From an uncultured Eubacteriales bacterium (GTDB taxonomy: Bacteria; Bacillota; Clostridia; Oscillospirales; CAG-272), in assembly GCA_900549725.1 (NCBI GenBank), contig URPL01000007.1, forward strand, positions 6,031-70,030: DNA of 64,000 nucleotides, in the 5' to 3' direction. This document shows, piece by piece, positions 19,173 to 57,773 of the stretch (positions within the stretch are counted from its first letter, which is position 1; every line of letters starts with the position of its first letter). The position numbers and the translations under genes were made by a program. The notes under the pieces are model-generated. The model saw only the letters and a list, made by a program, of their open reading frames with translations, made no database searches and was not told the origin of the DNA.

Positions 19173-19208
19173 CAAATGAATGAAAAGAATGAATATTGGA
19201 GGAAAACA

Positions 19209-19973
19209 ATGAAAAAGGTGATTTTGATTTGCGGCATGGCACTTTTGCTGTGCGCGGTGATTGCAGCCCCGTTTGCCGTGCGCGCGGGGGTGCAAAAGCA
19301 AACGGACCCGCGGGCAAATGGCGACGGAATTTTGCGGCGGCAGGAGGTGCAAAAAACCGTTTCGGTTCCGCTTGCAGCAGGGCAAAGCGCTATGGCACAG
19401 TATGACAAGACCCGCCTGGTCAGCGGCGGATATGCCGATATCTATCGGGATGAAAACGGGAACGACTATATTTTCAGGGGCGGGAATTTGTGTGGATTTT
19501 ATAACAACGGAATTACTTTGCCGGCAAGCGGCTGCACCCCAATCGGCATTGCGGCGGCTGAAGCCGTTGCGCGTGAACAGCTGGCGCTTTTTTTGAAGGA
19601 CGCAGATGCTTATGCGGTAAAACGGGTCTTCGAAAAGGAGAGTTACGGACAATACTATATCACCTTTGCGAAAAAGGTCGGCAATCTCTTCCTTGCAGAC
19701 GGCGCAGAGGTTTGGGTGATGTATGACGGAGCGGTAAAAAGCATTTATCTTGCGCCGGGGCAGAGCGAGCCTGAGACAGACGTTGAGATGCTCTCCGAAA
19801 TCACCGAACAGGATTTGAGCAGCTATGCGCAGACGGCGATGGAACTGCTCTATCCTGATGCGGACGGGATCTTTAAAATGCAGGGATATGAGCTGCGCGG
19901 AGACGGCACGGTTTGGATCACGGGTGATTATATGGGGAGAACGGAGTGTGTGCAGTATGAGGTCGGTCAGTAA
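19209..19973 (+). CDS. Hypothetical secreted protein
   Basis: GGAGG SD. Signal peptide MKKVILICGMALLLCAVIAAPFAVRA. No recognised family. Confidence 0.55.
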   Translation: MKKVILICGMALLLCAVIAAPFAVRAGVQKQTDPRANGDGILRRQEVQKTVSVPLAAGQSAMAQYDKTRLVSGGYADIYRDENGNDYIFRGGNLCGFYNNGITLPASGCTPIGIAAAEAVAREQLALFLKDADAYAVKRVFEKESYGQYYITFAKKVGNLFLADGAEVWVMYDGAVKSIYLAPGQSEPETDVEMLSEITEQDLSSYAQTAMELLYPDADGIFKMQGYELRGDGTVWITGDYMGRTECVQYEVGQ

Positions 19974-33491: not shown

Positions 33492-33503
33492 ACCGAAAAA
33501 TTG

Positions 33504-33531
33504 ACGGCTGTCGGGACGACAGCCGTTTTTT
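33504..33531 (+). terminator. Intrinsic terminator
   Basis: Perfect 10-bp arms ACGGCTGTCG / CGACAGCCGT, then TTTTTT. Confidence 0.8.
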
Positions 33532-33563: not shown

Positions 33564-33592
33564 TTGACATGCGTTCATTTTATGTGTATAAT
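33564..33592 (+). promoter_or_regulatory. Perfect consensus sigma-A promoter TTGACA-17-TATAAT
   Basis: TTGACA at 33564..33569, a 17-nt spacer, TATAAT at 33587..33592. Lies 52 nt upstream of the SBP start. Confidence 0.65.
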
Positions 33593-33643
33593 ATGCAGTA
33601 AATGAACAACACAATGTTCTGAATAACGATGGGAGAGATTTTG

Positions 33644-34636
33644 ATGTTGAAAAAGATAGTTTTTATTTTTTTGAGTGCGGTGCTTTTGCTCGGCTCGGTG
33701 ATGCTTGCTTCCTGCGAAAAGAAAAAGGTTGTCACGGTGTATGCAACCTGCGAGGATTATCGCATTGAAAACGCGCAGAAAATGTTTGATGAAAAGTTTC
33801 CGGAACTTGAGGTGCGGGTGGAATACAAGTCCACGGGTGACCTTTCCTCCAAGCTGATCGCCGAGGGTGAAAAAACCGATTGTGATATTATCATGGAGCT
33901 GGAAAACGCTTACATGGAAAAAATAGCTGACAATCTTGCAACCCTTGACGGTGTCGATTTCAGTGTATATCAGGAAAGCCTGATCCCGGCAAGCCATAAA
34001 TATGTGCCGCTGATTGTTTCAAGCGGGGCAATTATCATAAGCCCCTCAGTTCTGAATGCAAAAGGTTTACCTACGCCAACCGGTTATGATGATCTGTTAA
34101 AAGAAGAATACAAGGGATTGATTTCCATGCCGAGTCCGAAGAGCTCCAGCACGGGCTACATGTTTTTGTTGAATTTGGTGAATGCTTGGGGCGAGGAAAA
34201 AGCGTTTGAATATTTCGATCGGCTTTCCGAGAATATCTCGGGTGCCGGTTTTACCTCTTCCGGTTCCGGCCCGGTACAGGCACTTAAGCTTGGCGAAGCG
34301 GCTATTGCACTCGGTATGACCTCGCAGGCAGTTGTTGAAATCAATGATAACGGCGCGGATTTCACCGTTCAGTATTTTGAAGAAGGTGCGCCCTATGATG
34401 TATATTCCAGTGCGATCATGAAGGGACATGAAAGCGATGCGGATGTGATGCGCGTGTTTGAATATCTTGTTTCCGATGTTACCCCTGCAGATAAAGAGCT
34501 GTATGCGCCGGAAACGATTTACAAAGACCGCACCTTTACAAAGCCCAACTATCCGCAAACCATCCCCTACGGCGATATGACGGGATTGGAAGATATCACC
34601 TGCAAGGAAGGACTTTTGAACAAGTGGAAATACTGA
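33644..34636 (+). CDS. ABC transporter substrate-binding lipoprotein (Fe3+/thiamine/2-aminoethylphosphonate-type cluster)
   Basis: GGGAGAG SD and lipobox VMLASC. A single-lobe-pair SBP of about 330 aa. The family placement is inferred from architecture and operon type. Confidence 0.7.
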   Translation: MLKKIVFIFLSAVLLLGSVMLASCEKKKVVTVYATCEDYRIENAQKMFDEKFPELEVRVEYKSTGDLSSKLIAEGEKTDCDIIMELENAYMEKIADNLATLDGVDFSVYQESLIPASHKYVPLIVSSGAIIISPSVLNAKGLPTPTGYDDLLKEEYKGLISMPSPKSSSTGYMFLLNLVNAWGEEKAFEYFDRLSENISGAGFTSSGSGPVQALKLGEAAIALGMTSQAVVEINDNGADFTVQYFEEGAPYDVYSSAIMKGHESDADVMRVFEYLVSDVTPADKELYAPETIYKDRTFTKPNYPQTIPYGDMTGLEDITCKEGLLNKWKY

Positions 34637-35376
34637 GAGCGGAGCACCTGAAAAAAAACTATGCCGGCGTAACGGCGCTGGACGATGTTGATTTTTCGGT
34701 GCAGGAGGGCGAATTTCTTTCCATTTTAGGGCCCTCCGGCTGCGGCAAAACAACGCTTTTGCGCATTTTGATTGGGCTGCTTGCGCCGGACGAGGGGCGA
34801 GTGCTTCTGCACGACGAGGATATCACGCAAAATGCGCCCGACCGCCGGCAGATGGGCATTGTGTTTCAAAACTATGCGCTGTTTGAAAACATGACCGTTC
34901 GACGCAATATCGAATATGCCATGAAGCTGCGCCCCGCGCTGCGCGCCAAGGCTTCGCAGCGCGCGACGGAGCTGATGGAGCGCGTGGGGCTCACAGAGCA
35001 TGCCGAAAAATATCCGGCGCAGCTTTCCGGCGGGCAGCAGCAGCGCGTCGCCATTGCGCGCACGCTGGCGCTCAGCCCTGCAATCATTCTGTTTGACGAG
35101 CCGATGAGCGCCCTGGATGTGGAAACGCGCCTCGCGCTGCGCCGCGAGCTGAAAACGATTCAGAAGGATCTGGGCACAACGATGATCTACATCACGCACG
35201 ACCAGGAGGAGGCGTTTGCCCTGTCCGACCGCATTATGGTGATGGGGAATGCAAAAATTCATCAGCTTGATACGCCCGCGCAGATTCTGGATGCGCCTGC
35301 GAACGAGTATGTGCGCCGCTTTGTGATTGATAATCTCAAGGCAAAAATCGATTCTCTTGCCAAATACATGCGGTAA
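34624..35376 (+). CDS. ABC transporter ATP-binding protein
   Basis: Walker A GPSGCGKTT, signature LSGGQQQR and Walker B ILFDEP. GTG start overlapping the SBP stop. No C-terminal regulatory (TOBE) domain. Confidence 0.85.
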   Translation: MEILRAEHLKKNYAGVTALDDVDFSVQEGEFLSILGPSGCGKTTLLRILIGLLAPDEGRVLLHDEDITQNAPDRRQMGIVFQNYALFENMTVRRNIEYAMKLRPALRAKASQRATELMERVGLTEHAEKYPAQLSGGQQQRVAIARTLALSPAIILFDEPMSALDVETRLALRRELKTIQKDLGTTMIYITHDQEEAFALSDRIMVMGNAKIHQLDTPAQILDAPANEYVRRFVIDNLKAKIDSLAKYMR

Positions 35377-35387
35377 GGGGGCGCGCC

Positions 35388-36995
35388 ATGCAAACTGTGA
35401 AAAAAACGGGCGGTGTGTTTCGAACCGCCACGGTGCTCCTGCTGTGTTGCTTTTTCCTGCTCTTTGTGATTTGCCCGCTGGGGGCGATGCTGTTAAATCT
35501 CGGCAAGGCGGATCTCGGAGCGTTGCTCCAAGACGGCTCCATTCGCACGGCGGCGGGTCATTCGTTGCTGGTTTCTCTGTGCGCAACCGTGATTTCCATT
35601 GCGGTTGCGGCGGTAGCTGCGGTATGCGTCAGCCGCACGGCGGTGCGGCTGAAATCCTTTTTCTCCGTTTTGATTCTTTTGCCTATGCTCATTCCGTCAA
35701 TTTCACACGGCATGGGGCTGACAATCCTGTTTGGGCAAAACGGAACGCTGACAAAGTTACTTGGCATGCAAAACGGTATTTACGGCTTTCCCGGGATCGT
35801 GGTCGGCTCTGTGATGTATGCCTTTCCGGTTGCATTCCTCATGATCTGCGATATTCTGCGATATGAGGATGCAACGCCGTATGAAGCGGCAAGAGTGCTC
35901 GGCATCGGCAAAGCTCGCCGCTTTTGCGCGATTACGCTGCCGTATCTGACAAAACCAATGATCAGCGTATTTTTTGCCGTATTCACGATGATTATCACGG
36001 ATTACGGCGTGCCGCTGATGATCGGCGGCAAATATAAAACGCTGCCGGTTTTGATGTATGAAGAGGTCATCGGGCGGCAGGATTTTGCAAAGGGGAGCTT
36101 TTTCGGCGTGATTTTGCTGCTGCCCGCTGTGATTGCATTTTTTGTGGATTTATTCTGCAAAAACGATCGCCGCAGCGGCTCGGTTGCAAGAGAGTTCACC
36201 CTATCGAAAAAGTTCGTGCGCGATGCGCTTGCCTTTGTGTATCTTGCGGTGCTTTCCGTCTGCGTGATTTATCCGATCGCTTCTTTTGCGGAGCTTGCCT
36301 TCACCAAGGCATATCCGATCGATCTGACCTTCACGCTGCACCATGTGCAGAATACCTTCCGCAAGGGCGCGGGCGATTATCTGCTCAATTCCGTGCTCAT
36401 TGCCTGCGGAACTGCGCTGCTCGGCACGGCGACGGCATTTCTCAGCGCCTGCTTTACGGCGCGTGATCGCGCGCGCGGCTCCCGCTTTTTGCACCTGATG
36501 TCCATTTTGTCGCTTGCCATTCCTGGCATTGTGCTCGGGCTTTCCTATGTGCTGTTTTTCAGCGGGACATTTCTCTATGCAACGCTGGCAATTCTGATCC
36601 TCGCCAATACGATCCACTTTTTCTCCTCCCCGTATCTGATGATGTACAACAGCATTGGAAAGCTCAGCCCGAATTTGGAGGCGGCTGCCGCAACGCTCGG
36701 CATCAAAAAGGCGCGTTTGATTTTTGATATTATTCTGCCGCAGACGCGCTCTACATTGGCTGAAATGTTTTCGTATTTCTTTGTCAACTCCATGATGACC
36801 ATTTCCGCCGTTGCGTTTTTGGCAACGCTTACGACAAAGCCGATTGCGCTGATGATTCCGCAGTTTGAGGCGCAGATGCTGCTTGAGGCATCGGCATTTG
36901 TTTCCGTTTTGATTTTGGCGGTTAATCTGCTGCTCAAGGGCGCGGTGGCGCTTTTGAAGAGAGGTATGGAGCGGCGCAGAACGACCGCCCGCTGA
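35388..36995 (+). CDS. ABC transporter permease, fused double-domain (FbpB/ThiP/PhnUV-like)
   Basis: 535 aa of polytopic protein made of two tandem permease halves. Confidence 0.8.
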   Translation: MQTVKKTGGVFRTATVLLLCCFFLLFVICPLGAMLLNLGKADLGALLQDGSIRTAAGHSLLVSLCATVISIAVAAVAAVCVSRTAVRLKSFFSVLILLPMLIPSISHGMGLTILFGQNGTLTKLLGMQNGIYGFPGIVVGSVMYAFPVAFLMICDILRYEDATPYEAARVLGIGKARRFCAITLPYLTKPMISVFFAVFTMIITDYGVPLMIGGKYKTLPVLMYEEVIGRQDFAKGSFFGVILLLPAVIAFFVDLFCKNDRRSGSVAREFTLSKKFVRDALAFVYLAVLSVCVIYPIASFAELAFTKAYPIDLTFTLHHVQNTFRKGAGDYLLNSVLIACGTALLGTATAFLSACFTARDRARGSRFLHLMSILSLAIPGIVLGLSYVLFFSGTFLYATLAILILANTIHFFSSPYLMMYNSIGKLSPNLEAAAATLGIKKARLIFDIILPQTRSTLAEMFSYFFVNSMMTISAVAFLATLTTKPIALMIPQFEAQMLLEASAFVSVLILAVNLLLKGAVALLKRGMERRRTTAR

Positions 36996-37018
36996 AAAAC
37001 CGGAAAAGGAGATATAAC

Positions 37019-37903
37019 ATGCTGACAAAAAAACAATTTGATATTCTTACCGCGCTTGAAGCCGACGCAAAATTGACGCAGCGCGCCTTGGCGCAGAAAA
37101 CGGGCATGTCTCTCGGGACGGCGAATAAAACGCTTGGCGAGCTGAGCGCCCTTGGATATACAAAGGACGGCGCGCTGACGGAAAGCGCCCGTGCAGCGCT
37201 TGAGCCGTATCGCGTGAAGCGGGCAATTTTCATTGCCGCGGGCTTTGGCTCGCGTTTGGTGCCGATCACGCTGAATACCCCAAAGCCTCTGGTGCGCGTC
37301 AAAGGCAGGCGCATCATCGAAAGCCTGCTGGATGCCGTGGTTGCGGCGGGGATTGAGGAAATTTATATTGTGCGCGGGTATCTTTCCGAACAGTTTGACC
37401 AGCTGCTTTATAAATACCCGACGATTAAGTTTATCGAAAACCCGGCGTATAATGAGGCAAACAACATCTCCTCCATGATGTGCGCGCGCTATCTTTTGCA
37501 AAGCGCATATGTTTTTGAAGCGGATCTTTTGCTGTATAACCCGACACTGATTACAAAATATCAATATTCCACCAATTATCTCGGCGTGCCCGTTGCAATG
37601 ACGAACGACTGGTGCTTTACCGTGAAAAACGGCTATATCACGCATCTTGGCGTCGGCGGCAGGGATTGCTGTCATATGTTCGGCATTTCCTATTGGAGCG
37701 CCGAGGACGGCGCAAAGCTTGCAGGGCATATTGAAAAGGTGTATCAGTCGCCCGGCGGGAAAGAGCGCTATTGGGATCAGGTCGCTTTTGACTATTATCC
37801 CTCCGAATATAAAATTTCCGTTCGCGAATGCAGCTTTGAGGATATTGTGGAAATCGATACTTTCCGCGAGCTCAAGCAGTTGGACGAGACATACGATGTA
37901 TAA
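37019..37903 (+). CDS. Winged-HTH fused to LicC-family cytidylyltransferase (phosphocholine/phosphonate-type NTP transferase)
   Basis: The N-terminal ~65 aa are MarR-like wHTH (FDILTALEADAKLTQRALAQKTGMSLGTANKTLGEL). The remainder is LicC-like: AIFIAAGFGSRLVPITLNTPKPLV, YIVRGYLSEQFDQL, YNEANNISS, YWDQV and EIDTFRELKQLD. Confidence 0.8.
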   Translation: MLTKKQFDILTALEADAKLTQRALAQKTGMSLGTANKTLGELSALGYTKDGALTESARAALEPYRVKRAIFIAAGFGSRLVPITLNTPKPLVRVKGRRIIESLLDAVVAAGIEEIYIVRGYLSEQFDQLLYKYPTIKFIENPAYNEANNISSMMCARYLLQSAYVFEADLLLYNPTLITKYQYSTNYLGVPVAMTNDWCFTVKNGYITHLGVGGRDCCHMFGISYWSAEDGAKLAGHIEKVYQSPGGKERYWDQVAFDYYPSEYKISVRECSFEDIVEIDTFRELKQLDETYDV

Positions 37904-37917
37904 AAATCGAAAAAGCG

Positions 37918-37949
37918 AAAAAATGCTCCCCGTGCGGGGAGCATTTTTT
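37918..37949. terminator. Bidirectional intrinsic terminator
   Basis: AAAAAATGCTCCCC / GGGGAGCATTTTTT with loop GTGC, between the convergent licC-like and GH16 genes. Confidence 0.8.
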
Positions 37950-37967
37950 CTGTGTTTCCGTGTTTGT

Positions 37968-39710
37968 TCAGGGGCGCGCCGCGTCGTTTAAATAGATCGG
38001 CGGATAGCTCTGCATATACTCCTTCAGCTGATAGACATGCACATAATCGATGATAAACTCTGCGGGAAAATCGTCAAGATCAAGACTGCCGAGCTTATCG
38101 TCGTTAAAATATGCGCTGTCGGAAGCCATAATCTGCAAAAGCATGTTTCCGGGGGAATCGCTGATGCCCTCGGTCAGGGTGCCGTAGTAATACCCATCCA
38201 CAAAGAAGGAATAGCCCTCTTTGGTCCACAGCATGCCGTAGGTATGATACTCGTTGTCCAGCGTGGAGAGCGGCAAATATGCGCCGAGCTTTGTGTTGGG
38301 TGCGGTACCGGGAACGCGGCTATAAAGATAGGTCTGCGCCACAATACGGTCGTCGTTGTTTTCGGGGCCGTACGGCGTGCCGTTTTCATCCGTTTTCCAT
38401 TGCCATGTTCCGTTTGGCAGAATCTCGGCGGAGCCGCCGGGACGGCCGTGCGTCCATACGGTGGAGGTCATTTGTCCGGAGCGCCCGTTGCTGTCGCGCT
38501 GGCCGGGGTAGCTTTCAAACATATCGACCTCGATCAGCTGCGTGAGATATTCGTTGAAATAACGCGGGTCATTGCGGTGCGCTGCAAATTCTTCAGCCGT
38601 GCGCAATCCGTTTTGATAGCTGCGCATCCAAAAGGCGGTATTTGTGCCGGAGGCGGTGGGCAGCTTGCAACGGATCTCATAATAGCCATAGGTTTGCCAA
38701 AAGCTTTCGGTGGTGTCGATCGCAGGAATTACGCTCTTTGCCTGCCCGTCGCCGTATTTGGTTTCCCTCAGCACAAGGTTGCCGTTGCCGTCCGTATAAA
38801 TATGCTCGGAGAGAAACGCATCAAGATCATTGCCGTATTGCGCTCTGAGCTCTTCCTGCAGCGAGGCAGGCTCCAAGATCAGCTGGTTGAAATCGGCTCT
38901 GCCGTCCAGATAGCGCCAAACGGATTTGTCGTACTCATTTCCGTCAAAATCCTGTACAAAGGTAGGAATCAAAGCGGAGCCGGTTAAAAGATAGCATTCG
39001 GGAGTGCTGTTATAGTAGTTAAACAGGCGGTGCGCCATGGCGGCGGCTTCCGCACGGGTCGCGTTGCCGCGGGGCACGAAGGTGCCGCTTCCTTTGCCGT
39101 ACATCATCTGCATGGCGCTGAGTGCGCTGACAGCCTTGCGTGCCCAGCCGGAAATTTGGGCGGCATCGGTATAGGTTGCTTCCAGATCAACGGAATAGCC
39201 GCTCAGATCAACCTTGCAGTATTTCGAAATGAAGTTATAAAGAATCAAAGCGAGCTGTTCGCGGGTGATATTGTCGTTCGGGGCAAAAATGCCGTCGCCC
39301 ATACCGCTCACGATTTTGTTTTCCGCAGCCCACTGCACGGCGGGGTAAAACCATTTTCCTTCCGGAACATCGGAAAAGTCTGTTGTTTTCGTAACCGTGA
39401 CATCCACGCCGATTTTATTCATCAAGGCGCGCAGAATCTGCACATACATTGCACGGGAGAGCGTGACGGAGGGGTTAAAATAGGCGGAATCGCCCATGTT
39501 TGTCATGATTCCGTTGTCCACAGCCCATTTGATGTCGTTGTATGCCCATCCCTGCCCGACATCGGTCAGGTAGGAAAAGTCATTGAGCGGTCTTGCCCAA
39601 TTGCCCGCGGAAAAAGCGGAGGCGATGAGCGTGCCGCACAAAAGCACCGCGGCAAGCGCAAATGCGCAAAAGCGCAGCGCGCGGGCGGATAACAGGCTTC
39701 TTTTTTTCAT
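37968..39710 (-). CDS. Cell-surface SLH-domain protein with C-terminal GH16-type glycoside hydrolase domain
   Basis: Signal peptide, then three SLH repeats (WAYNDIKWAVDNGIMTNMG.., WFYPAVQWAAENKIVSGMG.., ISGWARKAVSALSAMQMMYGKG..). GH16 beta-bulge-type catalytic motif E-V-D-M-F-E (codons 38514..38531). AAGGAGG SD 11 nt after the kinase stop. Confidence 0.8.
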   Translation of the reverse strand: MKKRSLLSARALRFCAFALAAVLLCGTLIASAFSAGNWARPLNDFSYLTDVGQGWAYNDIKWAVDNGIMTNMGDSAYFNPSVTLSRAMYVQILRALMNKIGVDVTVTKTTDFSDVPEGKWFYPAVQWAAENKIVSGMGDGIFAPNDNITREQLALILYNFISKYCKVDLSGYSVDLEATYTDAAQISGWARKAVSALSAMQMMYGKGSGTFVPRGNATRAEAAAMAHRLFNYYNSTPECYLLTGSALIPTFVQDFDGNEYDKSVWRYLDGRADFNQLILEPASLQEELRAQYGNDLDAFLSEHIYTDGNGNLVLRETKYGDGQAKSVIPAIDTTESFWQTYGYYEIRCKLPTASGTNTAFWMRSYQNGLRTAEEFAAHRNDPRYFNEYLTQLIEVDMFESYPGQRDSNGRSGQMTSTVWTHGRPGGSAEILPNGTWQWKTDENGTPYGPENNDDRIVAQTYLYSRVPGTAPNTKLGAYLPLSTLDNEYHTYGMLWTKEGYSFFVDGYYYGTLTEGISDSPGNMLLQIMASDSAYFNDDKLGSLDLDDFPAEFIIDYVHVYQLKEYMQSYPPIYLNDAARP

Positions 39711-39721
39711 AAATAACCTCC

Positions 39722-41059
39722 TTATTCGTAGCGAATATTGGCTTGCAGGGTTTTAAACGGCGCAAGGGAAGCGGCGGCTGCGCCGAACAGGGCGGCACCG
39801 TAGGCTGCTTCCTCACGGTGCGCGGGAACTTGCATGGGGAGCGTCATGGCGTCTTCAAACAGGCGCCGCAGCACGGCGCTTTTGCGAATGCCGTTGCCCG
39901 AGCCGTACAAATGCTCGGCGGCGGGCAGCCCGAAGGAACGATAATAGTCAAGCAATTCGTTTGCCATGCCGTGCATTACGCCGCCGACAAAATCGGTCGG
40001 GGTGAAATTGCGGTCGGAGAGGTTTTCGATGCTTGCGCGTTTTTTCGGGTCCTCCCGCGTTCCGCAAAAACTGGTGGAAAAGCGGATGGGGTCGGGCAGG
40101 GAAAAGATTTCTTCCGCCAGGCGGTCGATGATGGGATATTGCGGCTCGTCGTGCCCAAAGAGCGCAGCATAGGAACGGAAGAACTGCTCCAGCAGCGCCA
40201 GCGCCCGCCCGCCGCAAAGAGAGCAGCCGCAGACCAGGGAAAGCCCGTCGATATACGGGCGAATCTCACCGCTTTTCACGCCGCTTGGGGCGGCGCAGAT
40301 CACGGAGACCTGGCTTCCCGTGCCGACATTGAATAAAACGGAGCCCTCTGCGCTGCCGACGGTGCCGAGAATGCTTGCCTGGTTATCGCCGATCGCCAAG
40401 GAAACGGGAATGCCGCGATAGGTGCCGAGCGTCTCGGTCTTTGTGCTGACTGGGGGCAGAATCCCGCAGGAAAACAGTGCTTTGCAGGCATTGCGGTCGA
40501 AATCGCCCGCTGCCCTATCATAAAGCCCGAGGCTTGCGGCGTCGCTTGCGTGCATCAGCGGCGTTTTTTTGCCGCACAGGTGCATGGAAAGCGCATCATG
40601 AATCGTGCACAGCTGCCGGGCGCCCGCGGGCACGGTGCCTTCCAGGACGGCATGTGTATGCGTTGCAAGCCCGTATCCCGCGCTGATTGTATATCCCGTG
40701 CACGAACGAATCCTGGCAAGGGTCGTCTCCCCGTTTGCAAGCGGCTGCGCAGCGCGCTGGTCCTGCCAGGTATAAAGCGGGCCAAGGGGTGCGCCGTCTT
40801 TATCAAGATATACAATGCCGTGCATTTGCCCGGTGATGCCGATTGCGGCGATGGGGGCGAAGGCATCGCAAAGCTCGTCGATCATCGAAACGGCTCTGTC
40901 CAAAATGGCAGTTGCATCCTGAACGCGGGCATAGGGCGCAAAGCCCGATAAAAAGGGTTCGGACGGGACGGTCACCGCATGCAGCACGGTGCCGTCGCCG
41001 CTGTTTACCACAACGGCGCTGAGCGTCGTTGTGCCGATATCAAAACCGATGGTATGCAT
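39722..41059 (-). CDS. FGGY-family carbohydrate kinase (short, sedoheptulokinase/xylulokinase-like)
   Basis: 445 aa with GFDIGTTTLSAVVV, IGITGQMHGIVYLD, YTWQDQRA and IGDNQASILGT, which are FGGY signatures. Starts 8 nt after the GRE stop. Confidence 0.75.
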   Translation of the reverse strand: MHTIGFDIGTTTLSAVVVNSGDGTVLHAVTVPSEPFLSGFAPYARVQDATAILDRAVSMIDELCDAFAPIAAIGITGQMHGIVYLDKDGAPLGPLYTWQDQRAAQPLANGETTLARIRSCTGYTISAGYGLATHTHAVLEGTVPAGARQLCTIHDALSMHLCGKKTPLMHASDAASLGLYDRAAGDFDRNACKALFSCGILPPVSTKTETLGTYRGIPVSLAIGDNQASILGTVGSAEGSVLFNVGTGSQVSVICAAPSGVKSGEIRPYIDGLSLVCGCSLCGGRALALLEQFFRSYAALFGHDEPQYPIIDRLAEEIFSLPDPIRFSTSFCGTREDPKKRASIENLSDRNFTPTDFVGGVMHGMANELLDYYRSFGLPAAEHLYGSGNGIRKSAVLRRLFEDAMTLPMQVPAHREEAAYGAALFGAAAASLAPFKTLQANIRYE

Positions 41060-41067
41060 GGGGCACC

Positions 41068-43434
41068 TCAGCAGCGGGTGGAGCCAAGATCGAGGCGTGT
41101 GATGATATCCTGCTGAATTGCGGGGGAAAGGTCCAAAAAGTTGACAAAGGTGCCGTGAATGCGCATGATGTAAACGCCGCTGGGCGCATATTTTTTCGGA
41201 TCTGCCAAAACCTTGCGCAGGATTTCCGGCGTTGTTACATTGACATACAGATAAAACGGCGCGATTTTTTTATAATAGTCGTTGAAGAACAGCGGCTTGC
41301 AGACGCGGTCCGCAAACTGCTCGCCCTTTTCCTCATAGCTTTTTGCGGGGAAGAGGTTGGGGTCGATGCCGAAATGAGAGGCATATCCGCCGCAGAATTT
41401 CTCAAAGGGCAGCTTCCAGGTGGAAAGCGTACGGAAGCCGAGCCCCATGTGTGCGTCTCCGTACAGCGGGTCAACGCCGTAGTTGAGCATATCACGGGCT
41501 TTGCGTCCCGTGGGCAGCGCGCCCACCCAATAGCCGTAGAGCAAATGGGTGGAGGGGGTGGAAAAATCGGGGCGGAACGGGTTGCCCCAGTTATTCTTTG
41601 CGGCGCGCACCATATCGGCGATTTTGGAGGTCAGGGCAACGGTTTCTTCATCCGCCTCATCCTCATTGTTGCCGAATTTCGGGCAGGCAAGCAGCCATTG
41701 CCGCAGCTCTTCATAGCCCTCAAAGTTGCATTTCAGCGCGTCGAGCAGCGTTTTCGCATCCTGCGGGCGCTCGCGCAGCAAGTGATCGACTGCGACAAAG
41801 GAATCCGCAACAACGGTATTGCCGTGAATCAGGCAGCCGCTGCCGTTATATTCCGTGCCCTGATGCTCCGTGTCGCGCATGTCGTAGCCGCTCTTTACGC
41901 CGCCCATGAGAATGGAGAGAAACGGCACGGGCAAAAGCGAAACGGCATGCGTCGCCTCATTGGCGGACTCGGTCATTTTATCAATATAGAATTGCGCGTT
42001 TTCATAGAAGCGCTCACGCAGATGCGTCAGCTTTTCTATAGCGCTTTCCTTTTTGCATACGGAGCCGATCTCTTTGCCCGTAATGGCGGAAATGCCGTCG
42101 GTGAGGGTCAGCTCCAAAATTTTTCCGAGATTGAGCCAGCAGTTTGTTGTGTTGCCGTTGTCCTTGCCCATAATCAGCGGCTCCTGGCAGCCGGCAATGG
42201 AATAATCGGGCAGATCGCTCTCCTTGACGCCGGCGCGGCGCAGCACCGCAAATACGGAATCATCATTGAACAGCGAGGGCGTCAGGGCGCCGGGGGTGAA
42301 GAAGAAGCGGCCCATTTCGCGGTAGAGCTCGGCGGGGGTGTTTTTGTGCAGCTTTACGGAGAGAATCGGCTGCGGCAAATTCATATCATAATATGCATCA
42401 AACAGCGCATAGGAGGTCGGGCAGGTCAGGTCGTTTCCTGCGGTATCTCTGCCGCCGATGATGAGATTTTGAGAGATTGCCCAGGAGCGGTCGCCGACAT
42501 TGAAGAAGACCAAAAGATGCTTGAGAAGCGCCGCCGCGTCTGCACGGTCAAGTCCGTCATGCGCGCGGTAGGGCTCAAAAATGCGATCCGCATTGCCAAC
42601 GGAAAAGGCAAAGGGGTTAGGGGATTGCTCAAGGCACATCAGCTGCCAGCACAGCATAAAGGACTGAATGGCCTCATACATCGTCTCGGCGCCGTAGGCG
42701 GGGACCTTTTCCAGCGTCTGCACCATTTGCTGCAGCTGCGTGCGGCGCGGCGCATCGGCGGTTTTCATTTGCTCTCTTGCGATGGCTGCATAGCGCCCTG
42801 CCAAAATCAAAAGAGCATCCACACTGAGCAGCATTGCGCGGTATTCCGCAGCCTGTGCGTCGTCGCAGGGGGCGCTTTGGCGCTGCTCGATCTCTTCGCG
42901 CACAGCGCAGATGCCGCGGGCGAGAACCCGGCGCATATCGGGAATGACATGGCCGGTCACCTGCTCCATAAAATAGGCGACCTCGGCGGTATATTGTTCG
43001 CTCTTTGCATAGGTTGTGCTCAGCGCCTCGGCATAGGCGCCGTTGGCATCGTGCGCGCGGACGGCGTCGATGCGTTCCTTGGTGATTTCCTCGTTCGGTT
43101 CAATATCTCCGAGCACCGCAATCGGGTCGCAATAGCCCGCGAAGGATTCCACACGGAAGGATGGGTTGATCAGGGCATAGCTGCGCGCAAAGGCGTCGCG
43201 CTGTGTTCCCGCAAAAATCGCGTTTTCGGAAATGGAGAGCGGCAGCTCCTCGCATACCTTTTTCAAAAGATATGCCGCCTGTACCGCGGCGGGTTCATCC
43301 TTACATTCCGCTTCATGCGCAATGCGGATTTCCTTGGATAAAAACCATCCGTCCAGACGCTTGCGCGCGCGCTCCTCCTTGAAAAGCGCCTTTGCCATTT
43401 CGGTCAGGCGCTCGGCTGTTGCAATTTTGTTCAT
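41068..43434 (-). CDS. Glycyl radical enzyme, PFL2/eliminase-like, unassigned specificity
   Basis: 788 aa. Cys loop IAGCQEP (Cys416 codon 42187..42189, Glu418). C-terminal glycine loop YIMRIHGTFVNFLDLSPAIQQDIITR (Gly761 codon 41152..41154), which aligns to the canonical RVxG[YF]..F..L...Q.dii.R. The N-terminal region is typical of the PFL2 family. Confidence 0.88.
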   Translation of the reverse strand: MNKIATAERLTEMAKALFKEERARKRLDGWFLSKEIRIAHEAECKDEPAAVQAAYLLKKVCEELPLSISENAIFAGTQRDAFARSYALINPSFRVESFAGYCDPIAVLGDIEPNEEITKERIDAVRAHDANGAYAEALSTTYAKSEQYTAEVAYFMEQVTGHVIPDMRRVLARGICAVREEIEQRQSAPCDDAQAAEYRAMLLSVDALLILAGRYAAIAREQMKTADAPRRTQLQQMVQTLEKVPAYGAETMYEAIQSFMLCWQLMCLEQSPNPFAFSVGNADRIFEPYRAHDGLDRADAAALLKHLLVFFNVGDRSWAISQNLIIGGRDTAGNDLTCPTSYALFDAYYDMNLPQPILSVKLHKNTPAELYREMGRFFFTPGALTPSLFNDDSVFAVLRRAGVKESDLPDYSIAGCQEPLIMGKDNGNTTNCWLNLGKILELTLTDGISAITGKEIGSVCKKESAIEKLTHLRERFYENAQFYIDKMTESANEATHAVSLLPVPFLSILMGGVKSGYDMRDTEHQGTEYNGSGCLIHGNTVVADSFVAVDHLLRERPQDAKTLLDALKCNFEGYEELRQWLLACPKFGNNEDEADEETVALTSKIADMVRAAKNNWGNPFRPDFSTPSTHLLYGYWVGALPTGRKARDMLNYGVDPLYGDAHMGLGFRTLSTWKLPFEKFCGGYASHFGIDPNLFPAKSYEEKGEQFADRVCKPLFFNDYYKKIAPFYLYVNVTTPEILRKVLADPKKYAPSGVYIMRIHGTFVNFLDLSPAIQQDIITRLDLGSTRC

Positions 43435-43455
43435 GGTAATGCTTCCTTTCTGTGC

Positions 43456-44178
43456 TTAGGTATGGACAATGTGAATTCCGGCATCGGTAAAGGTTTGCTC
43501 AAAAAAGGCTACGGTATCCTTTGAGACAAACGCATCGTGCATTTGATAGGGCTTGCCGATCTTGCTCCATTTCTCTTTGCCGTATTCGTGATATGGCAGA
43601 ATCTCAACGGAAAATTTTCCCGGAAGCGCTGCAAAAAAGCGGAGAAAGCCCTTGGCGTCTTCTTTTGCATCGTTGAAGGTGTGAATCAGGGGGATGCGAA
43701 CCACGGTCGGCACCGGGGAAGCGGAAAGCGCCGCAAAATTCTCTTTGAGGCCGTCAAGCGTGCCGCCGGTCACGGCATGCAGCTTTTCCGGGTCATAGTG
43801 CTTGCAGTCACACATCAGGCAGTCAAGCCATGGCAAAAGCGCATTGAGATGCGGCAGGGAAAGATTGCTTTCGATCGCCGTTGAAATACCGCTTTCGTGC
43901 AGCCCCTGCAAGAGCTCCCGCGCAGCTTGCCATTGCAGCAGGACCTCGCCGCCAGTCAGCGTCACGCCGCCGCCGTCGATCATCATCGGCAGGCAGCTTT
44001 TTGCCTCCCTGATCAAATCTGCGGTGTCGCATTCCTTTGCGGCGCGGCCGGGGTCCATCCCCTCGGGATTGGAGCACCAGGGGCAATGCCAGTTGCAGCC
44101 CTGCAAATGGTAGACAAGGCGATTGCCCGGGCCGTCCTGTGAGTAGTTGAATCCTTTTTGAAAATAGCGTATTTTCAT
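43456..44178 (-). CDS. Glycyl-radical enzyme activating protein (radical SAM), PFL-AE-like short form
   Basis: CX3CX2C motif CNWHCPWC, DGPGNR and a GGVTLTGGE SAM motif. About 240 aa with no ferredoxin-like Cys-rich insert. Start set at the second ATG 44178 (AAGGA SD). ATG 44211 would lie at or next to the predicted TSS. Confidence 0.85.
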   Translation of the reverse strand: MKIRYFQKGFNYSQDGPGNRLVYHLQGCNWHCPWCSNPEGMDPGRAAKECDTADLIREAKSCLPMMIDGGGVTLTGGEVLLQWQAARELLQGLHESGISTAIESNLSLPHLNALLPWLDCLMCDCKHYDPEKLHAVTGGTLDGLKENFAALSASPVPTVVRIPLIHTFNDAKEDAKGFLRFFAALPGKFSVEILPYHEYGKEKWSKIGKPYQMHDAFVSKDTVAFFEQTFTDAGIHIVHT

Positions 44179-44219
44179 GGCAGCAGTCCTTATCGGGAAC
44201 GGTTTTCCCATCTTTATTC

Positions 44220-50701: not shown

Positions 50702-51319
50702 TTACGCGCGGATGTGGTCCTCAATGCGCGTAAAAATCATTTCAAGCGCCACCAGGTTTTTTCCGCCCTCCGGAATGATCAGATCGGCATTTTTACGGCT
50801 GGGCTGCACGTATTGCTCATGCATGGGCTTGACGGTTTCAAGATACTGATTGATCACGCTGTCCAGCGAACGCCCGCGGTCGCGCACGTCGCGGCGGATG
50901 CGCCGCAAAATGCGGACATCGGCATCCGTATCTACAAAAAGCTTGATATCCATGTGCGAGCAAAGCGCCTCATCTGCAAAAATCAGAATACCTTCCACAA
51001 TGATGACCTGCGTCGGCTCAATATGCTCCGTTTTTTCGGAGCGATTGTGCACGGTGTAGTCATAAACGGGGCAATCAATCGGAATCCCGGCGCGCAAAAG
51101 CTTGAGATGCTCGATCAAAAGCTCGGTTTCAAAAGCCTCGGGGCAATCATAGTTGAGCGCTGCCCGCTGCTCATAGTCAAGATCGGGATGGGCACGGTAA
51201 TAGTTATCATGGCGGATCACCGTCACATCCTCGCCGAAATGCCGCACGATTTGCTTTGTCAGGGTAGTTTTTCCGCTGCCGGTGCCCCCGGCAATGCCGA
51301 TCAGAATAGGGGGATTCAT
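50702..51319 (-). CDS. udk: Uridine kinase
   Basis: Start at MNPPILIGIAGGTGSGKTT (P-loop). Has a DNYY block and a PEGG block. Confidence 0.9.
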   Translation of the reverse strand: MNPPILIGIAGGTGSGKTTLTKQIVRHFGEDVTVIRHDNYYRAHPDLDYEQRAALNYDCPEAFETELLIEHLKLLRAGIPIDCPVYDYTVHNRSEKTEHIEPTQVIIVEGILIFADEALCSHMDIKLFVDTDADVRILRRIRRDVRDRGRSLDSVINQYLETVKPMHEQYVQPSRKNADLIIPEGGKNLVALEMIFTRIEDHIRA

Positions 51320-51348
51320 GTTTTTTTCCTTTCTTGTCTGCCGCTTGG

Positions 51349-52656
51349 TTATTCTGCATGAATGGTTTTGAAAATCAGGGGAATCGGCTCCGGCGCTTCC
51401 TCCGAGAAACGGAGCGCACCGCAAAATTCCGCGGCAGCGTCGTCAAATAATGCGGGATCGTTGGCATACAGCGTGGCAATCACATCGCCGCTGCGGAGGC
51501 AGTCGCCCGTTTTGGCATGCAGCAAAATGCCGGCACCCGGGTCGATACGGTCTTCCTTTTTTGCTCTGCCCGCACCGAGCAGCACGGAGGAAATTCCGAT
51601 TTGCTCGGTATTCATATGGCAAAGATAGCCGTCCCGATCACTCAGAATGTCAAAATGATGGGTTGCCTGCGGCAGGAGCGCGGGGTTTTCCACGGCTTTG
51701 CGGTCGCCGCCCTGTGCCTCGATCCATTCGCAGAATTTTGCAAATGCTTTGCCGCTGTCGATTGCGTCCCTCACAGCTGCCTCTGCTGCCTCGCGCGGCA
51801 GCTGCAGGCAGAGCATCGTCATTTCCGTCGCAAGGTCGCAGCACAGCGTGCGCAGATCCTGCGGGCCTTCTCCGCGCAAAACGGAAATCGCTTCTTTGAC
51901 CTCAAGCGCGTTCCCGATCGCATTGCCCAGCGGCAGATCCATATCGGTGATGACGGCGGTCATACGGCGCCCGTTCAGCGTGCCGATGCGCACCATTTCT
52001 TTTGCAAGGGTTTCCGCCTGCTGCGGCGTTTTACAAAACGAGCCGCTGCCGCATTTGACATCCAGGACAATGGAGTGCGCGCCCGCCGCCAGCTTTTTCG
52101 ACATGATGCTGGAGACGATGAGGGGAATGGAATTGACTGTCGCCGTAACATCCCGCAGGGCATACAGCTTTTTATCCGCCGGGGCAAGATTTGCCGTTTG
52201 CCCGACCACCGCGACGCCGATGCGCTCCACCTGACTCAGAAAAGCCTCTTCCGAAAGCGCGGTTTTGTAGCCGGGGATGGATTCCAGCTTATCCACCGTG
52301 CCGCCGGTATGACCCAGGCCGCGCCCAGAGACCTTTGCAACCTTGCCGCCCAGCGAGGCGACAATGGGGGCTAAAATCAGCGTTGTTTTGTCGCCGACAC
52401 CGCCCGTTGAGTGTTTATCCACGGAGAATGTTCCGAATCGCTCCAGGTTGATGCGGTCGCCCGAGTCTGCCATGGCATCGGTCAGAACCGCCGTTTCCTC
52501 TGCGCTCATGCCGCGGAAGAAAACTGCCATGGCAAATGCAGCCATTTGATAATCCGGGACGGTTCCTGCGGTATATTCTTTGATCAGCGTGCGGAGCTCT
52601 TCCTCCGTCAGCGCTTCGCCGTCCCGCTTTTTTGCAATCAAATCATACATACGCAT
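51349..52656 (-). CDS. pdp: Pyrimidine-nucleoside (thymidine) phosphorylase
   Basis: 435 aa. Has MRMYDLIAKKRDG, DKHSTGGVGDKTTL and a SGRGLGHTGGTVDKLE block. Confidence 0.9.
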   Translation of the reverse strand: MRMYDLIAKKRDGEALTEEELRTLIKEYTAGTVPDYQMAAFAMAVFFRGMSAEETAVLTDAMADSGDRINLERFGTFSVDKHSTGGVGDKTTLILAPIVASLGGKVAKVSGRGLGHTGGTVDKLESIPGYKTALSEEAFLSQVERIGVAVVGQTANLAPADKKLYALRDVTATVNSIPLIVSSIMSKKLAAGAHSIVLDVKCGSGSFCKTPQQAETLAKEMVRIGTLNGRRMTAVITDMDLPLGNAIGNALEVKEAISVLRGEGPQDLRTLCCDLATEMTMLCLQLPREAAEAAVRDAIDSGKAFAKFCEWIEAQGGDRKAVENPALLPQATHHFDILSDRDGYLCHMNTEQIGISSVLLGAGRAKKEDRIDPGAGILLHAKTGDCLRSGDVIATLYANDPALFDDAAAEFCGALRFSEEAPEPIPLIFKTIHAE

Positions 52657-52686
52657 GATGCGTTTCCTCCTTTTCCTAAAAAACGA

Positions 52687-56308: not shown

Positions 56309-56358
56309 GTGTCATCTGCCCTTCTTCTTTGTCGTTTTTTGAGTTTTCTTCGTTTTTG

Positions 56359-56391
56359 AAAAAAAGCGGGGGTGCCCAAAAGGACACCCCC
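56359..56391 (-). terminator. Intercistronic intrinsic terminator/attenuator between SBP and ATPase genes
   Basis: On the minus-strand RNA: GGGGGUGUCC-UUUU-GGGCACCCCC (10 bp including one G-U), followed by GC + UUUUUUU. On the plus strand the same position is a C-A mismatch, which supports minus-strand function. Confidence 0.65.
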
Positions 56392-57722: not shown

Positions 57723-57773
57723 ACGAAGAAATCCTCCATTCGTTTTTTTTGAGTTACGAACTTGCTAACACTT

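Follow-up and report, generated by a model that had tools for sequence, protein, structure and literature searches.

What is gained by joining, in one operon, an ABC importer and a cytidylyltransferase that carries its own DNA-binding domain? This question is raised by a four-gene unit lying in the 64-kb stretch of DNA analysed here (the window). Zwitterionic head groups (phosphocholine, phosphoethanolamine, 2-aminoethylphosphonate or 2-AEP) displayed on bacterial surfaces influence recognition by the immune system, the resistance of the cell to antimicrobial peptides and the adsorption of phages, and to our knowledge the known head-group routes come from a few pathogens. The original prediction was that this operon imports a phospho- or phosphono-head-group compound and activates it directly. 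The LicC/PntC type predicted for the enzyme and the organophosphate type predicted for the binding protein support it, and we consider it fairly probable that the operon forms an autonomous salvage module, under its own control, for a small head group of the amino-alkyl phosphate or phosphonate kind.

The four genes are read from the + strand and encode a substrate-binding lipoprotein, an ATPase, a double permease and a winged helix-turn-helix (wHTH)-cytidylyltransferase, with a promoter at the 5′ side and a bidirectional terminator at the 3′ side. The features are as follows.

33564..33592 (+): sigma-70-type promoter, -35 TTGACA at 33564-33569, 17-nt spacer, -10 TATAAT at 33587-33592
33573..33607 (no strand): operator-like inverted repeat, GTTCATTT-N19-AAATGAAC, 35 bp, straddling the -10 box
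33629..34636 (+): substrate-binding lipoprotein ORF, 335 aa, probable true start at 33644
34624..35376 (+): ABC ATPase ORF, 250 aa, 13-nt overlap with the binding-protein ORF
35388..36995 (+): fused double permease ORF, 535 aa, two BPD_transp_1 domains
37019..37903 (+): wHTH and cytidylyltransferase ORF, 294 aa
37019..37204 (+): winged helix-turn-helix domain, residues 1-62 of the 294-aa protein
37205..37903 (+): LicC/PntC-fold cytidylyltransferase domain, residues 63-294 of the same protein
37917..37950 (no strand): bidirectional intrinsic terminator, 15-bp stem with 7 G-C pairs and T-runs on both strands

This layout is the one originally described. The promoter, announced as perfect, scores 12/12 and is the sole perfect site in the scanned 32.5-39 kb; lipoprotein, short ATPase, fused double permease and 294-aa protein were all recovered from ORFs and Pfam; and the terminator, with its T-runs in both directions, is common to the operon and to the convergent downstream gene, which encodes an SLH/GH16 protein. 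The upstream gene is closed by its own terminator at 33503-33527. For the binding protein, ATG 33644 is most likely the start, rather than 33629, because a GGGAGAG Shine-Dalgarno lies 6 nt upstream of it and homologues are 330 aa long. From this ATG the signal peptide reads MLKKIV...LASC, and the lipobox Cys shows little or no variation in the family.

The 294-aa protein had been read as a MarR-like winged helix preceding a LicC core. Pfam places HTH_24 (E 1.3e-9) and MarR_2 (E 1e-6) at residues 2-47 and NTP_transferase from residue 69, and the AF2 model of the winged helix shows three helices then a beta hairpin (pLDDT >89), in agreement with this reading; F7, G33 and N36 of the winged helix are invariant in the family. 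Among the LicC blocks originally quoted, AAGFGSRLVPITLNTPKPLV and YWD (251-253) are present, but the last one is EIDTFRE and not EIDxxxD. The best solved relative is S. pneumoniae LicC (1jyk), matching residues 62-291 at E 6.6e-31 when the single sequence is used and at 5.6e-39 when the family profile is used, and the next-best is PntC (6pd1, E 8e-15). Sugar-1-phosphate enzymes match at 1e-7 or weaker, over the N-terminal ~60 residues only. In Foldseek, LicC aligns with a TM of 0.88 at 32% identity, against 15-18% identity for RmlA-type enzymes. A placement of the transferase among sugar-1-phosphate nucleotidyltransferases had been named as counting against the prediction; LicC and PntC are instead ahead by both sequence and structure, and the domain appears to group with them. 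The neighbour-joining tree of the enzyme is star-like, without resolved placement, and with its OCR-derived PntC references is of qualitative use only.

Catalytic features are fully conserved. In 51 homologues, the GxGxR...PK signature (G75, G77, R79, K89) and the Mg2+/catalytic residues D169, E278 and D280, which correspond to D107, E216 and D218 of LicC, are invariant; R79, K89, D169, E278 and D280 are the catalytic residues. Also kept are the amine-holding acidic and aromatic side chains, with roles taken from the literature (E167, D253, W198, Y251). Fold and catalytic residues are thus common to LicC and to the enzyme here, but only the latter has a DNA-binding domain.

The substrate pocket gives a mixed picture. 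The choline pocket of LicC is incomplete: A147 stands in for Y85 and E167 for D105, whereas W198, Y251 and D253 are kept. Seven discriminating positions were compared with the PntC of Atopobium rimae (Ari) and Olsenella uli (Oul), whose sequences derive from an OCR'd supplementary figure. Positions 150-151 (I150-S151), 167 (E167) and 197 (D197) match PntC; positions 147 (A147) and 199 are small, unlike LicC; position 251 is a LicC-like Tyr, and position 254 matches neither. Characterised PntC enzymes come from A. rimae, O. uli and Treponema denticola, and Ari-PntC prefers AEP over phosphocholine 440-fold (Rice et al. 2019, PMC6697681). With these enzymes the window protein seems to have in common a small or Lys residue replacing Tyr85, I-S replacing F/I-Y, Glu replacing Asp105, the D-W-(C/V/A) motif and the C-terminal (L/F)DxxY motif, and in both cases the route would need no kinase; the overall identity of about 35-37% is similar to that with LicC, and Tyr251 is as in LicC. 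PntC genes lie in pepM biosynthetic clusters and are often fused to AEP transaminase or Ppm (PMC6697681), while here no phosphonate biosynthesis gene turned up among the Pfam-scanned window ORFs and the annotated neighbour clusters, and the substrate would come in through the importer. On balance the pocket seems to resemble that of 2-AEP-specific PntC more than that of LicC, and this resemblance favours phosphoethanolamine or 2-AEP over phosphocholine as ligand.

A classical Lic-type pathway without the kinase has to be weighed at this point: phosphocholine would be imported and converted by a true LicC to CDP-choline, for teichoic acids that anchor choline-binding proteins. We hold this rather unlikely. 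LicC is indeed the closest solved structure, its choline-pocket residues W136, Y190, W191 and D192 are conserved in the 294-aa protein (Y251, W252 and D253 matching the last three), and among the relatives there are PF01633 kinase domains, LicD (loci L088 and L094) and, in the Eggerthellaceae locus L092, two proteins with choline-binding repeats following a fused relative. The aromatic-box Tyr and the Asp105 equivalent are, however, changed as in AEP-specific PntC, and the NNISS, EAD and DW(C/V/A) motifs match Ari/Oul PntC. Moreover, fusions of cytidylyltransferase and kinase that are truly LicC-like (P0255, P0220 d1) keep a Y / IY / E197 signature that the window protein does not have, and the ORFs covered by Pfam scanning (26.6-64 kb and four upstream ORFs) include no protein with choline-binding repeats. 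With two choline-pocket positions different and a pocket signature nearer to AEP-specific PntC, a reading of the enzyme as a LicC specific for phosphocholine is not warranted.

The importer points in the same direction as the preferred reading, the uptake of an amino-alkyl phosphate or phosphonate. Pfam matches the binding protein with SBP_bac_6, SBP_bac_1 and SBP_bac_11 and the ATPase with ABC_tran (E 1.5e-38), without C-terminal regulatory domain, and finds two BPD_transp_1 stretches in the permease. For each component the best-scoring NCBIfam model belongs to the "putative 2-AEP transporter" set PhnS2/PhnT2/PhnU2 (TIGR03261/03265/03262; E 3e-46 for the binding protein), with scores that are all below the equivalog cut-offs (158/393, 321/458 and 378/593 bits, respectively) and with PhnT2 matched over only positions 3-235 of 353.

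A profile search of the binding protein against PhnS, ThiB and FbpA had been proposed with the prediction. Against PDB, the family profile retrieves VcA0625 (2e-38), AfuA (2e-35) and P5PA (6e-30) ahead of FbpA (about 1e-9), PhnS (3e-8) and ThiB (8e-5), and Foldseek ranks these relatives in the same order. There is thus no firm clustering with iron or thiamine binders; a ferric (FbpA) or thiamine (ThiB) binder was rejected with about 1e-9 and 8e-5 against 1e-30 to 1e-38 for organophosphate binders, and the pairing of a sugar-nucleotide enzyme with an importer of iron or thiamine was rejected on profile and fold ranking. The binding protein groups with AfuA, P5PA and VcA0625, which are organophosphate binders, and with the PhnS2 model; phosphorylated metabolites are the ligands of all its nearest relatives of solved structure.

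Alignment mapping onto AfuA separates two parts of the pocket. Equivalents of the phosphate-binding S37, S148-T150 and S184-G185 are conserved in the profile alignment, as motifs STG (69-70), S173-x-T175 and S211-G212, and these Ser/Thr/Gly motifs at helix N-termini are shared with AfuABC, P5PA and VcA0625, the best profile and structural matches. The sugar- or ring-binding residues of the AfuA group (Y103, H205, D206, E229) are in contrast replaced; the last three align with S232 (variable), Q233 and a variable residue, and at pocket positions there are two conserved Glu, E42 and E92. An AfuA-like importer of hexose phosphate or PLP was rejected, since the ring-binding residues are not conserved. 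The three-part architecture with a fused double permease is common to AfuABC, P5PA, VcA0625 and PhnS2-T2-U2. Compared with the PhnS2-T2-U2 models, the ATPase here has no C-terminal domain and scores stay under the cut-offs; compared with AfuABC and PhnS2-type importers in general, the importer is coupled here to an activating enzyme and not to catabolism.

Homologues of the enzyme number thousands in public protein collections, mostly from uncultured Oscillospirales, Christensenellales and Treponema. The module is common among gut anaerobes and is found in at least 336 species-level genomes. Of 80 related species genomes, roughly 50 have the ABC trio adjoining the gene of the wHTH enzyme, with otherwise different surroundings; these carriers of all four genes are Clostridia and termite Treponema, and about 25 of the 80 loci have no adjacent importer. 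Recurrent neighbours, often co-directional with the module, are a YidC::Glyphos_transf (TagF-like) gene (30/80 loci) and a gene for a sulfatase-family membrane protein (24/80), both absent from the 64-kb window and both without sequence match in PDB. Candidate downstream transferases thus stand next to the module in other genomes, and from this association the YidC::TagF-like transferase and the sulfatase-family protein are likely consumers of the activated head group; the consumer is likely TagF-like and not necessarily LicD.

LicA, LicB and LicD are not recurrent in the 80 loci, LicD occurring only beside kinase-fused relatives. Their absence from the window, noted from the start, stands after Pfam scanning of 26.6-64 kb and of four ORFs of 0-26 kb, the rest of 0-26 kb being inspected by eye. 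The window ORFs scanned with Pfam contain no PepM-family match, and no phosphonate-biosynthesis gene is found in the annotated part of the recurrent neighbour clusters of the 80 loci. A downstream glycyl-radical enzyme that might have linked the region to choline as a choline TMA-lyase was rejected (CutC, 147 bits against a cut-off of 1050). Relatives up to 54% identical carry a fused choline/ethanolamine kinase (PF01633). In L091 and L094, two of the four kinase-type loci examined, the place of the ABC importer is taken by an APC permease, and L091 also has the YidC::TagF-like and sulfatase-family partners.

Could the activated compound serve membrane phospholipid synthesis, as in the CDP-choline/CDP-ethanolamine route of Treponema denticola LicCA, and not a wall polymer? 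The enzyme family occurs in Treponema, CDP-amine donors are used for lipids in spirochaetes, and the sulfatase-family partner, judged from its Pfam family, resembles enzymes moving head groups from lipids. We nevertheless find this very unlikely: among neighbour clusters present in at least 4 of the 80 loci, other than the annotated ones, none is a possible CDP-alcohol phosphatidyltransferase, and the neighbours found are TagF-like proteins, LicD, glycosyltransferases and flippases. Most improbable is that an organophosphate or phosphonate is scavenged as P, N or C source, the 294-aa protein being mainly a repressor whose transferase-like domain only senses the ligand: the named models nearest to the importer are those of catabolic 2-AEP systems, relatives of the AfuA type import nutrients and the transferase copy beside the winged helix in H-C-K-C fusions has lost pocket residues and could be a sensor, but the window domain groups with the C-terminal H-C-K-C copy, which keeps them, and not with this degenerate copy, all its catalytic residues are invariant, recurrent neighbours are envelope-biosynthesis genes, and the annotated part of their clusters includes no phosphonatase, C-P lyase or phosphatase.

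Autoregulation had been suggested from the DNA-binding fusion alone, and it gains support because a conserved inverted repeat, a putative operator over the -10 box, accompanies the winged-helix enzyme across three phyla. The family consensus is TGTTCA-N23-TGAACA. The repeat is the only exact match in the window, where a third half-site (TGTTC) lies at 33615-33619, and with the same spacing it heads the cluster in about 38 related loci; 52 matches are counted in 1.22 Mb for about 6 expected. Of the four kinase-fused relatives examined, three have it immediately upstream and the fourth has abutting half-sites. An automated test retrieved 28 exact and 14 one-mismatch sites in 69 loci, compared to 1.3% of random windows, an under-count since the simple ORF caller misplaces some gene starts; about one third of testable loci, including the Ruminococcus group, have no recognisable operator.

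Two other readings of the repeat were rejected: an RNA hairpin or riboswitch, since the left arm lies between -35 and -10 and would stay untranscribed, and a LexA (Cheo) box, to which half-site orientation and spacing do not fit in our reading of the sequence. The features of an enzyme-repressor are present, a wHTH domain and a conserved inverted repeat over the -10 box, with DNA binding predicted. As in BirA and NadR, a DNA-binding domain and an enzyme that transfers nucleotidyl groups in the same pathway are joined in one protein, and the predicted operator overlaps the promoter of pathway or transport genes; folds and chemistry are however unrelated, and half-sites here are 30 bp apart. This centre-to-centre spacing is unusual for a MarR-type dimer and counts against the scheme, as does the fact that LicC and Ari-PntC are monomers in solution.

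Building on the observed gene content, folds, conserved catalytic and phosphate-binding residues, synteny and conserved operator, we infer the ligand, direction of regulation, effector and final acceptor in the following scheme. The lipoprotein would capture an already phosphorylated compound outside the cell, possibly phosphoethanolamine or 2-AEP and less likely phosphocholine, which the double permease and short ATPase would import. The C-terminal LicC/PntC-fold domain would join it to CTP, giving CDP-X or CMP-X with no need for a kinase. A transferase encoded elsewhere in the genome would then use the activated head group to decorate a polymer or lipid of the envelope; the candidate in many relatives is the YidC-fused TagF-like phosphotransferase with the sulfatase-family membrane enzyme, and in kinase-type relatives sometimes LicD. 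The enzyme would repress its own operon because its winged helix would bind TGTTCA-N23-TGAACA over the -10 box, and repression would probably respond to substrate or product, following the same logic as BirA or NadR.

The salvage, CTP activation and envelope transfer proposed here follow the logic of the Lic-1 pathway of S. pneumoniae and H. influenzae (LicB permease, LicA kinase, LicC, LicD). In contrast to Lic-1, there is no LicB-type permease or kinase, the ABC importer appears to deliver an already phosphorylated compound, the choline pocket differs at two residues, a TagF-like enzyme and not LicD is the likely partner for transfer, and the module is an operon separate from its consumers. 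In the literature searched there is no description of the module, of a phosphocholine or phosphoethanolamine ABC importer or of CMP-AEP scavenging. We judge the module to be an undescribed variation on the Lic pathway, with as new elements the inverted repeat, the two recurrent envelope neighbours and the kinase-fused/APC-permease relatives.

More tentatively, gut and termite-gut anaerobes may share an undescribed envelope-decoration pathway in which one protein, a BirA-like repressor-cytidylyltransferase, would serve as sensor and activating enzyme for scavenged phosphoethanolamine, 2-AEP or phosphocholine. Supply would be ensured either by an AfuA-like ABC importer of the phospho-compound or by an APC permease and a fused kinase; the recipients would be a previously unrecognised YidC-fused TagF-like phosphotransferase and a sulfatase-family enzyme, and the half-sites of the regulator would flank the -10 box three helical turns apart. 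Our results suggest that many commensals may take a ready-made head group from the gut lumen, skipping the kinase, that one metabolic enzyme may also act as the transcription factor controlling its own supply, and that YidC-fused TagF-like enzymes may act on head groups different from glycerol or ribitol phosphate. Once its operator and ligand were defined, the system could also yield a compact sensor part for use in anaerobes. Finally, the link between transport, regulation and activation is found elsewhere within single polypeptides, as permease::wHTH::cytidylyltransferase fusions (P0135, P0128).

Positions 33564 to 37950 form a compact unit carrying its own transcription signals. It encodes an ABC importer and a 294-aa protein joining a winged helix (wHTH) to a cytidylyltransferase domain, and we consider it fairly probable that this is an autoregulated operon for the uptake of a small amino-alkyl phosph(on)ate, which is then activated by attachment of CMP for use in the cell envelope. 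Its elements and its upstream neighbour are:

33503-33527, terminator of the upstream gene, which encodes an AEC-family membrane transporter
33564-33592, plus strand, perfect sigma-70-type promoter (TTGACA 33564-33569, 17 nt, TATAAT 33587-33592; score 12/12)
33629-34636, plus strand, ORF 1, solute-binding protein (Pfam)
34624-35376, plus strand, ORF 2, ABC ATPase (Pfam), overlapping ORF 1 by 13 nt
35388-36995, plus strand, ORF 3, permease with two BPD_transp_1 domains (Pfam)
37019-37903, plus strand, ORF 4, HTH_24/MarR_2 at residues 2-47, then NTP_transferase from residue 69 (Pfam)
37917-37950, terminator with a 15-bp stem, predicted on both strands and common to the operon and a convergent SLH/GH16 gene

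The promoter is the sole 12/12 site within the scanned 32.5-39 kb. The true start of the binding protein is probably ATG 33644, which is preceded at 6 nt by a GGGAGAG ribosome-binding site; homologues are 330 aa long. The signal peptide closes in a lipobox, LASC, with a Cys that varies little or not at all. Promoter, ORFs, Pfam domains and two-strand terminator bear out the operon as described in the original prediction.

Among all PDB sequences, LicC of S. pneumoniae matched residues 62-290 of the 294-aa protein over its full length, with E 6.6e-31 for the single sequence and 5.6e-39 using a 51-member family profile. The second-best match came from Treponema denticola, whose PntC domain is phosphonate-specific (8e-15); matches to sugar-1-phosphate enzymes were weaker than that to PntC and confined to the N-terminal nucleotide-binding ~60 residues. 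An AlphaFold model (pLDDT 93) gave the same ranking by fold, with LicC (TM 0.88, 32% identity, E 2e-21) followed by PntC (E 2e-14), RmlA-type enzymes showing 15-18% identity. The N-terminus of this model, a three-helix bundle and a beta hairpin, is a winged helix. Since the G75-x-G77-x-R79...K89 signature is invariant in the family alignment, as are D169, E278 and D280 (LicC D107, E216 and D218), the transferase domain looks like a working enzyme and not a degenerate sensor. The LicC sequence blocks claimed beforehand are present except the last, which reads EIDTFRE instead of EIDxxxD.

For the three importer components, the best NCBIfam models were PhnS2, PhnT2 and PhnU2 ('putative 2-aminoethylphosphonate ABC transporter'), with scores all well below the curated cut-offs (158/393, 321/458 and 378/593 bits, respectively). 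The ATPase covers just the first 235 of the 353 PhnT2 profile positions, and therefore misses the usual C-terminal domain. A profile of 34 binding-protein orthologues was searched against the PDB:

Best PDB matches of the 34-member binding-protein profile (E-value)
VcA0625 (glucose-6-phosphate binder), 2e-38
AfuA (hexose/heptose phosphates), 2e-35
P5PA (pyridoxal phosphate), 6e-30
Ferric FbpA, about 1e-9
Salmonella PhnS, 3e-8
ThiB, 8e-5

Foldseek, run with a model of high confidence (pLDDT 93), ranked them identically. An iron or thiamine binder is thereby ruled out, the E-values of FbpA and ThiB lying far from the 2e-38 to 6e-30 of the organophosphate binders; clustering with such proteins, which would have spoken against the original prediction, was not seen. 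Ligand contacts of AfuA and P5PA (PMC4546632, PMC8427247) were mapped through the profile-PDB alignment. The phosphate-binding Ser/Thr/Gly motifs are kept (STG at 69-70, S173-x-T175, S211-G212), the ring contacts Y103, H205, D206 and E229 are lost, and AfuA pocket positions T11 and T60 are replaced by E42 (invariant) and E92 (at least nearly invariant). On these grounds the protein is a predicted organophosphate binder with new specificity, whose acidic pocket would suit a cationic amine. At one related locus (L066, 5277-7567), two tandem binding-protein genes precede the ATPase gene, which hints at more than one ligand per single translocator.

To map the head-group pocket, LicC residues were taken from Rice et al. 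(PMC6697681), after correcting the PDB chain for its offset of 20 from their native numbering:

Choline pocket of LicC and corresponding residues of the window protein
Y85, A147
D105, E167
W136, W198
Y190, Y251
W191, W252
D192, D253

LicC prefers phosphocholine 200-fold over 2-aminoethylphosphonate (AEP) and 2700-fold over phosphoethanolamine, AEP-specific Tde-PntC has Glu at LicC positions D105 and D192, and Ari-PntC is nearer LicC, yet has a 440-fold AEP preference (Rice et al., PMC6697681). Ari/Oul PntC and the window family have motifs in common, as read from the supplementary alignment of that paper, recovered as OCR text:

Pocket motifs (motif 1; motif 2; motif 3; C-terminus)
Ari/Oul PntC (OCR text): IENxEY..KNNISS; CEAD; T(D/G)DW(A/V)F; FDxxY
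Window family: IENPAYNEANNISS; FEAD; TNDWCF; LDETY
LicC: YNNFYS; IDAD; TNEWFL; absent

Across ~100 domains, the pocket positions define two types. LicC belongs to the first, as do LicC-LicA-like fusions; the window family belongs to the second, together with Ari/Oul PntC and with the C-terminal copy of the transferase in larger fusion proteins. Global identity to the window protein is non-discriminating (Oul 37%, Ari 35%, Spn-LicC 34%) and a neighbour-joining tree is star-like. We infer that choline would fit this pocket less well than a small primary amine, namely phosphoethanolamine or the isosteric 2-AEP. By our rough judgement, one of these two compounds is slightly favoured as the ligand; phosphocholine, for which the LicC-like Trp, Tyr and Asp residues of the pocket speak and A147 and the shared PntC motifs do not, is rather unlikely, and some other compound takes what is left.

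Homologues of the wHTH-transferase number in the thousands at 65-80% identity and occur in at least 336 species-representative genomes, mostly of uncultured Oscillospirales, Christensenellales, Ruminococcus-like Clostridia and termite-gut Treponema. Clostridium methylpentosum DSM 5476 (locus L035) is one carrier in culture. In a survey of 80 loci that took in 10 kb of DNA on each side, the ABC trio adjoined the wHTH-transferase gene in roughly 50, usually upstream, sometimes downstream and once divergently, within variable wider surroundings. Two representative proteins, P0135 (858 aa) and P0128, are direct permease::wHTH::transferase fusions; they may be genuine or read-through gene calls, and either way show that the double permease and wHTH-transferase genes are tightly coupled. 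Recurrent neighbours were a protein of ~700 aa in which a YidC-type insertase domain is joined to a TagF-like CDP-glycerol glycerophosphotransferase domain (PF02096 + PF04464; 30/80 loci), a membrane protein of ~620 aa belonging to the sulfatase/LtaS/EptA superfamily (24/80) and a signal peptidase (14/80). Several genomes carry the co-directional array sulfatase-like, small TM protein, signal peptidase, YidC::TagF-like, binding protein, ATPase, permease, wHTH-transferase. Neither the YidC::TagF-like nor the sulfatase-like partner was found in the window by tblastn and Pfam scans, nor did either have a PDB sequence match.

When 1.8 billion cluster representatives were searched exhaustively with HMMER, 234 clusters scored E below 1e-30. 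Among the best 150, whose architectures were read, 58 are wHTH-transferases and about 10 wHTH-transferase-kinases, some of which have the transferase twice; LicCA-like transferase-kinase proteins of both domain orders are also found. The fused kinase is a choline/ethanolamine kinase (PF01633), and one transferase-kinase (P0142) shares 54% identity with the catalytic domain of the window protein. Four kinase-bearing loci have the following neighbours:

L088: LicD, polysaccharide genes, Amidohydro_3
L091: APC-family permease, Amidohydro_3, the same sulfatase-like and YidC::TagF-like pair
L092 (Eggerthellaceae): Amidohydro_3, two proteins with choline-binding repeats
L094: LicD, glycosyltransferase genes, APC permease, Amidohydro_3

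One pathway thus seems to have two interchangeable front ends, a permease and kinase acting on a free amino-alcohol or an ABC importer acting on a phospho-compound; with the latter, the window would need neither LicA nor LicB. Since a kinase is pointless for a phosphonate, these fusions argue for phosphate esters as substrates in at least some members of the family. The ~860-900-aa proteins P0121, P0306 and P0359 of loci L091, L092 and L094 consist of wHTH, transferase, choline/ethanolamine kinase and second transferase. In their first transferase copy, the Trp and the acidic residues of the pocket are gone (R147, H150, S167), and the pocket of the second copy is of the window type. An APC permease lies alongside in two of the three loci, and a ~520-aa Amidohydro_3 protein in all three.

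An inverted repeat, GTTCATTT-N19-AAATGAAC, spans the -10 box at 33573-33607 and is the single exact GTTCA-N25-TGAAC of the 64-kb window. In the 80 loci plus the window (1.22 Mb), the repeat with a 23-27 nt spacer occurs 52 times versus about 6 expected, and in about 38 loci it lies just 5' of the first cluster gene, be it that of the binding protein, the wHTH enzyme itself, the YidC::TagF-like protein or an APC permease. An automated conservative test gave 28 exact and 14 one-mismatch sites in 69 testable loci, versus 1.3% of random windows; about a third of loci have no recognisable site. The consensus reads TGTTCA-N23-TGAACA, and its inner flanks are rich in A/T. The same repeat stands directly 5' of wHTH-transferase-kinase genes at L088, L091 and L092, and at L094 the half-sites abut (ATGTTCATGAACAT). 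Because the predicted operator accompanies the winged helix in Firmicutes, Spirochaetes and Actinobacteria, whatever the transporter type, there is good comparative evidence that the 294-aa enzyme would also be the repressor of its own operon, and the autoregulation originally proposed gains support from this site over the -10 box. The half-site spacing of 30 bp is not explained by the model, LicC and Ari-PntC being monomers in solution (Rice et al., PMC6697681).

Other candidate sites were observed. A second, oppositely oriented pair, TGAACA-ACACAA-TGTTCT, lies just past the operator at 33603-33620, and a similar string, (T/A)TCAACAACACAA(A/T)(A/G)GTTACAA, occurs ~150 nt 5' of the YidC::TagF-like gene in six Ruminococcus-type loci (L037, L039-L042, L046) from which the main operator is absent; it may represent a variant of the binding site, or be shared by chance among close relatives. 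Five loci (L036, L043, L045, L055, L071) carry two operator copies 81 nt apart, 5' of the binding-protein gene.

Enzyme, importer, neighbour and operator comparisons together support in outline the earlier reading of a head-group import and activation module. Like the Lic pathway, it would salvage a head group, use CTP to activate it and pass it on to the envelope; unlike the Lic-1 locus, it has an incomplete choline pocket compared with LicC, and no LicA, LicB or LicD was found in the window (Pfam at 26.6-64 kb, mostly translations read by eye at 0-26 kb). The pocket resembles that of PntC in part, but no PepM family was hit by the window ORFs scanned with Pfam, and the recurrent neighbours that were annotated are not genes of phosphonate biosynthesis; the importer is related to PhnS2T2U2, but scores below the model cut-offs; and the binding protein, in contrast to AfuA, misses the sugar motif. 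In the open-access literature searched, we found no description of the ABC importer-wHTH-transferase module, its operator or its YidC::TagF-like partner. Judging from sequence comparison, we would classify the module as a widespread, self-regulated, kinase-independent variant on the known Lic-like pathway theme.

Further features of the window are:

18519-19172 and 19176-19973, plus strand, two adjacent ORFs without Pfam match
37968-39710, minus strand, 580-aa secreted protein with S-layer-homology (SLH) repeats and a GH16 domain, converging on the operon terminator
39722-44211, minus strand, cluster of a glycyl-radical enzyme (788 aa), radical-SAM activase and FGGY sugar kinase
50702-59311, minus strand, nucleoside salvage block (uridine kinase, pyrimidine-nucleoside phosphorylase, Bmp/PnrA-type ABC importer, purine nucleoside phosphorylase-family protein, DeoC)

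SLH domains bind pyruvylated wall polysaccharide, and the SLH/GH16 protein is informative on the envelope type of the source organism. The glycyl-radical enzyme falls far under the cut-offs for PFL, CutC, HypD and sulfopropanediol dehydratase (best 241 bits vs 678). The salvage block is unconnected with the operon, though it feeds pyrimidine nucleotide pools. Finally, the ORF at 18519-19172 may be foreign DNA, since its third-position GC is 0.38 versus about 0.6-0.7 elsewhere.
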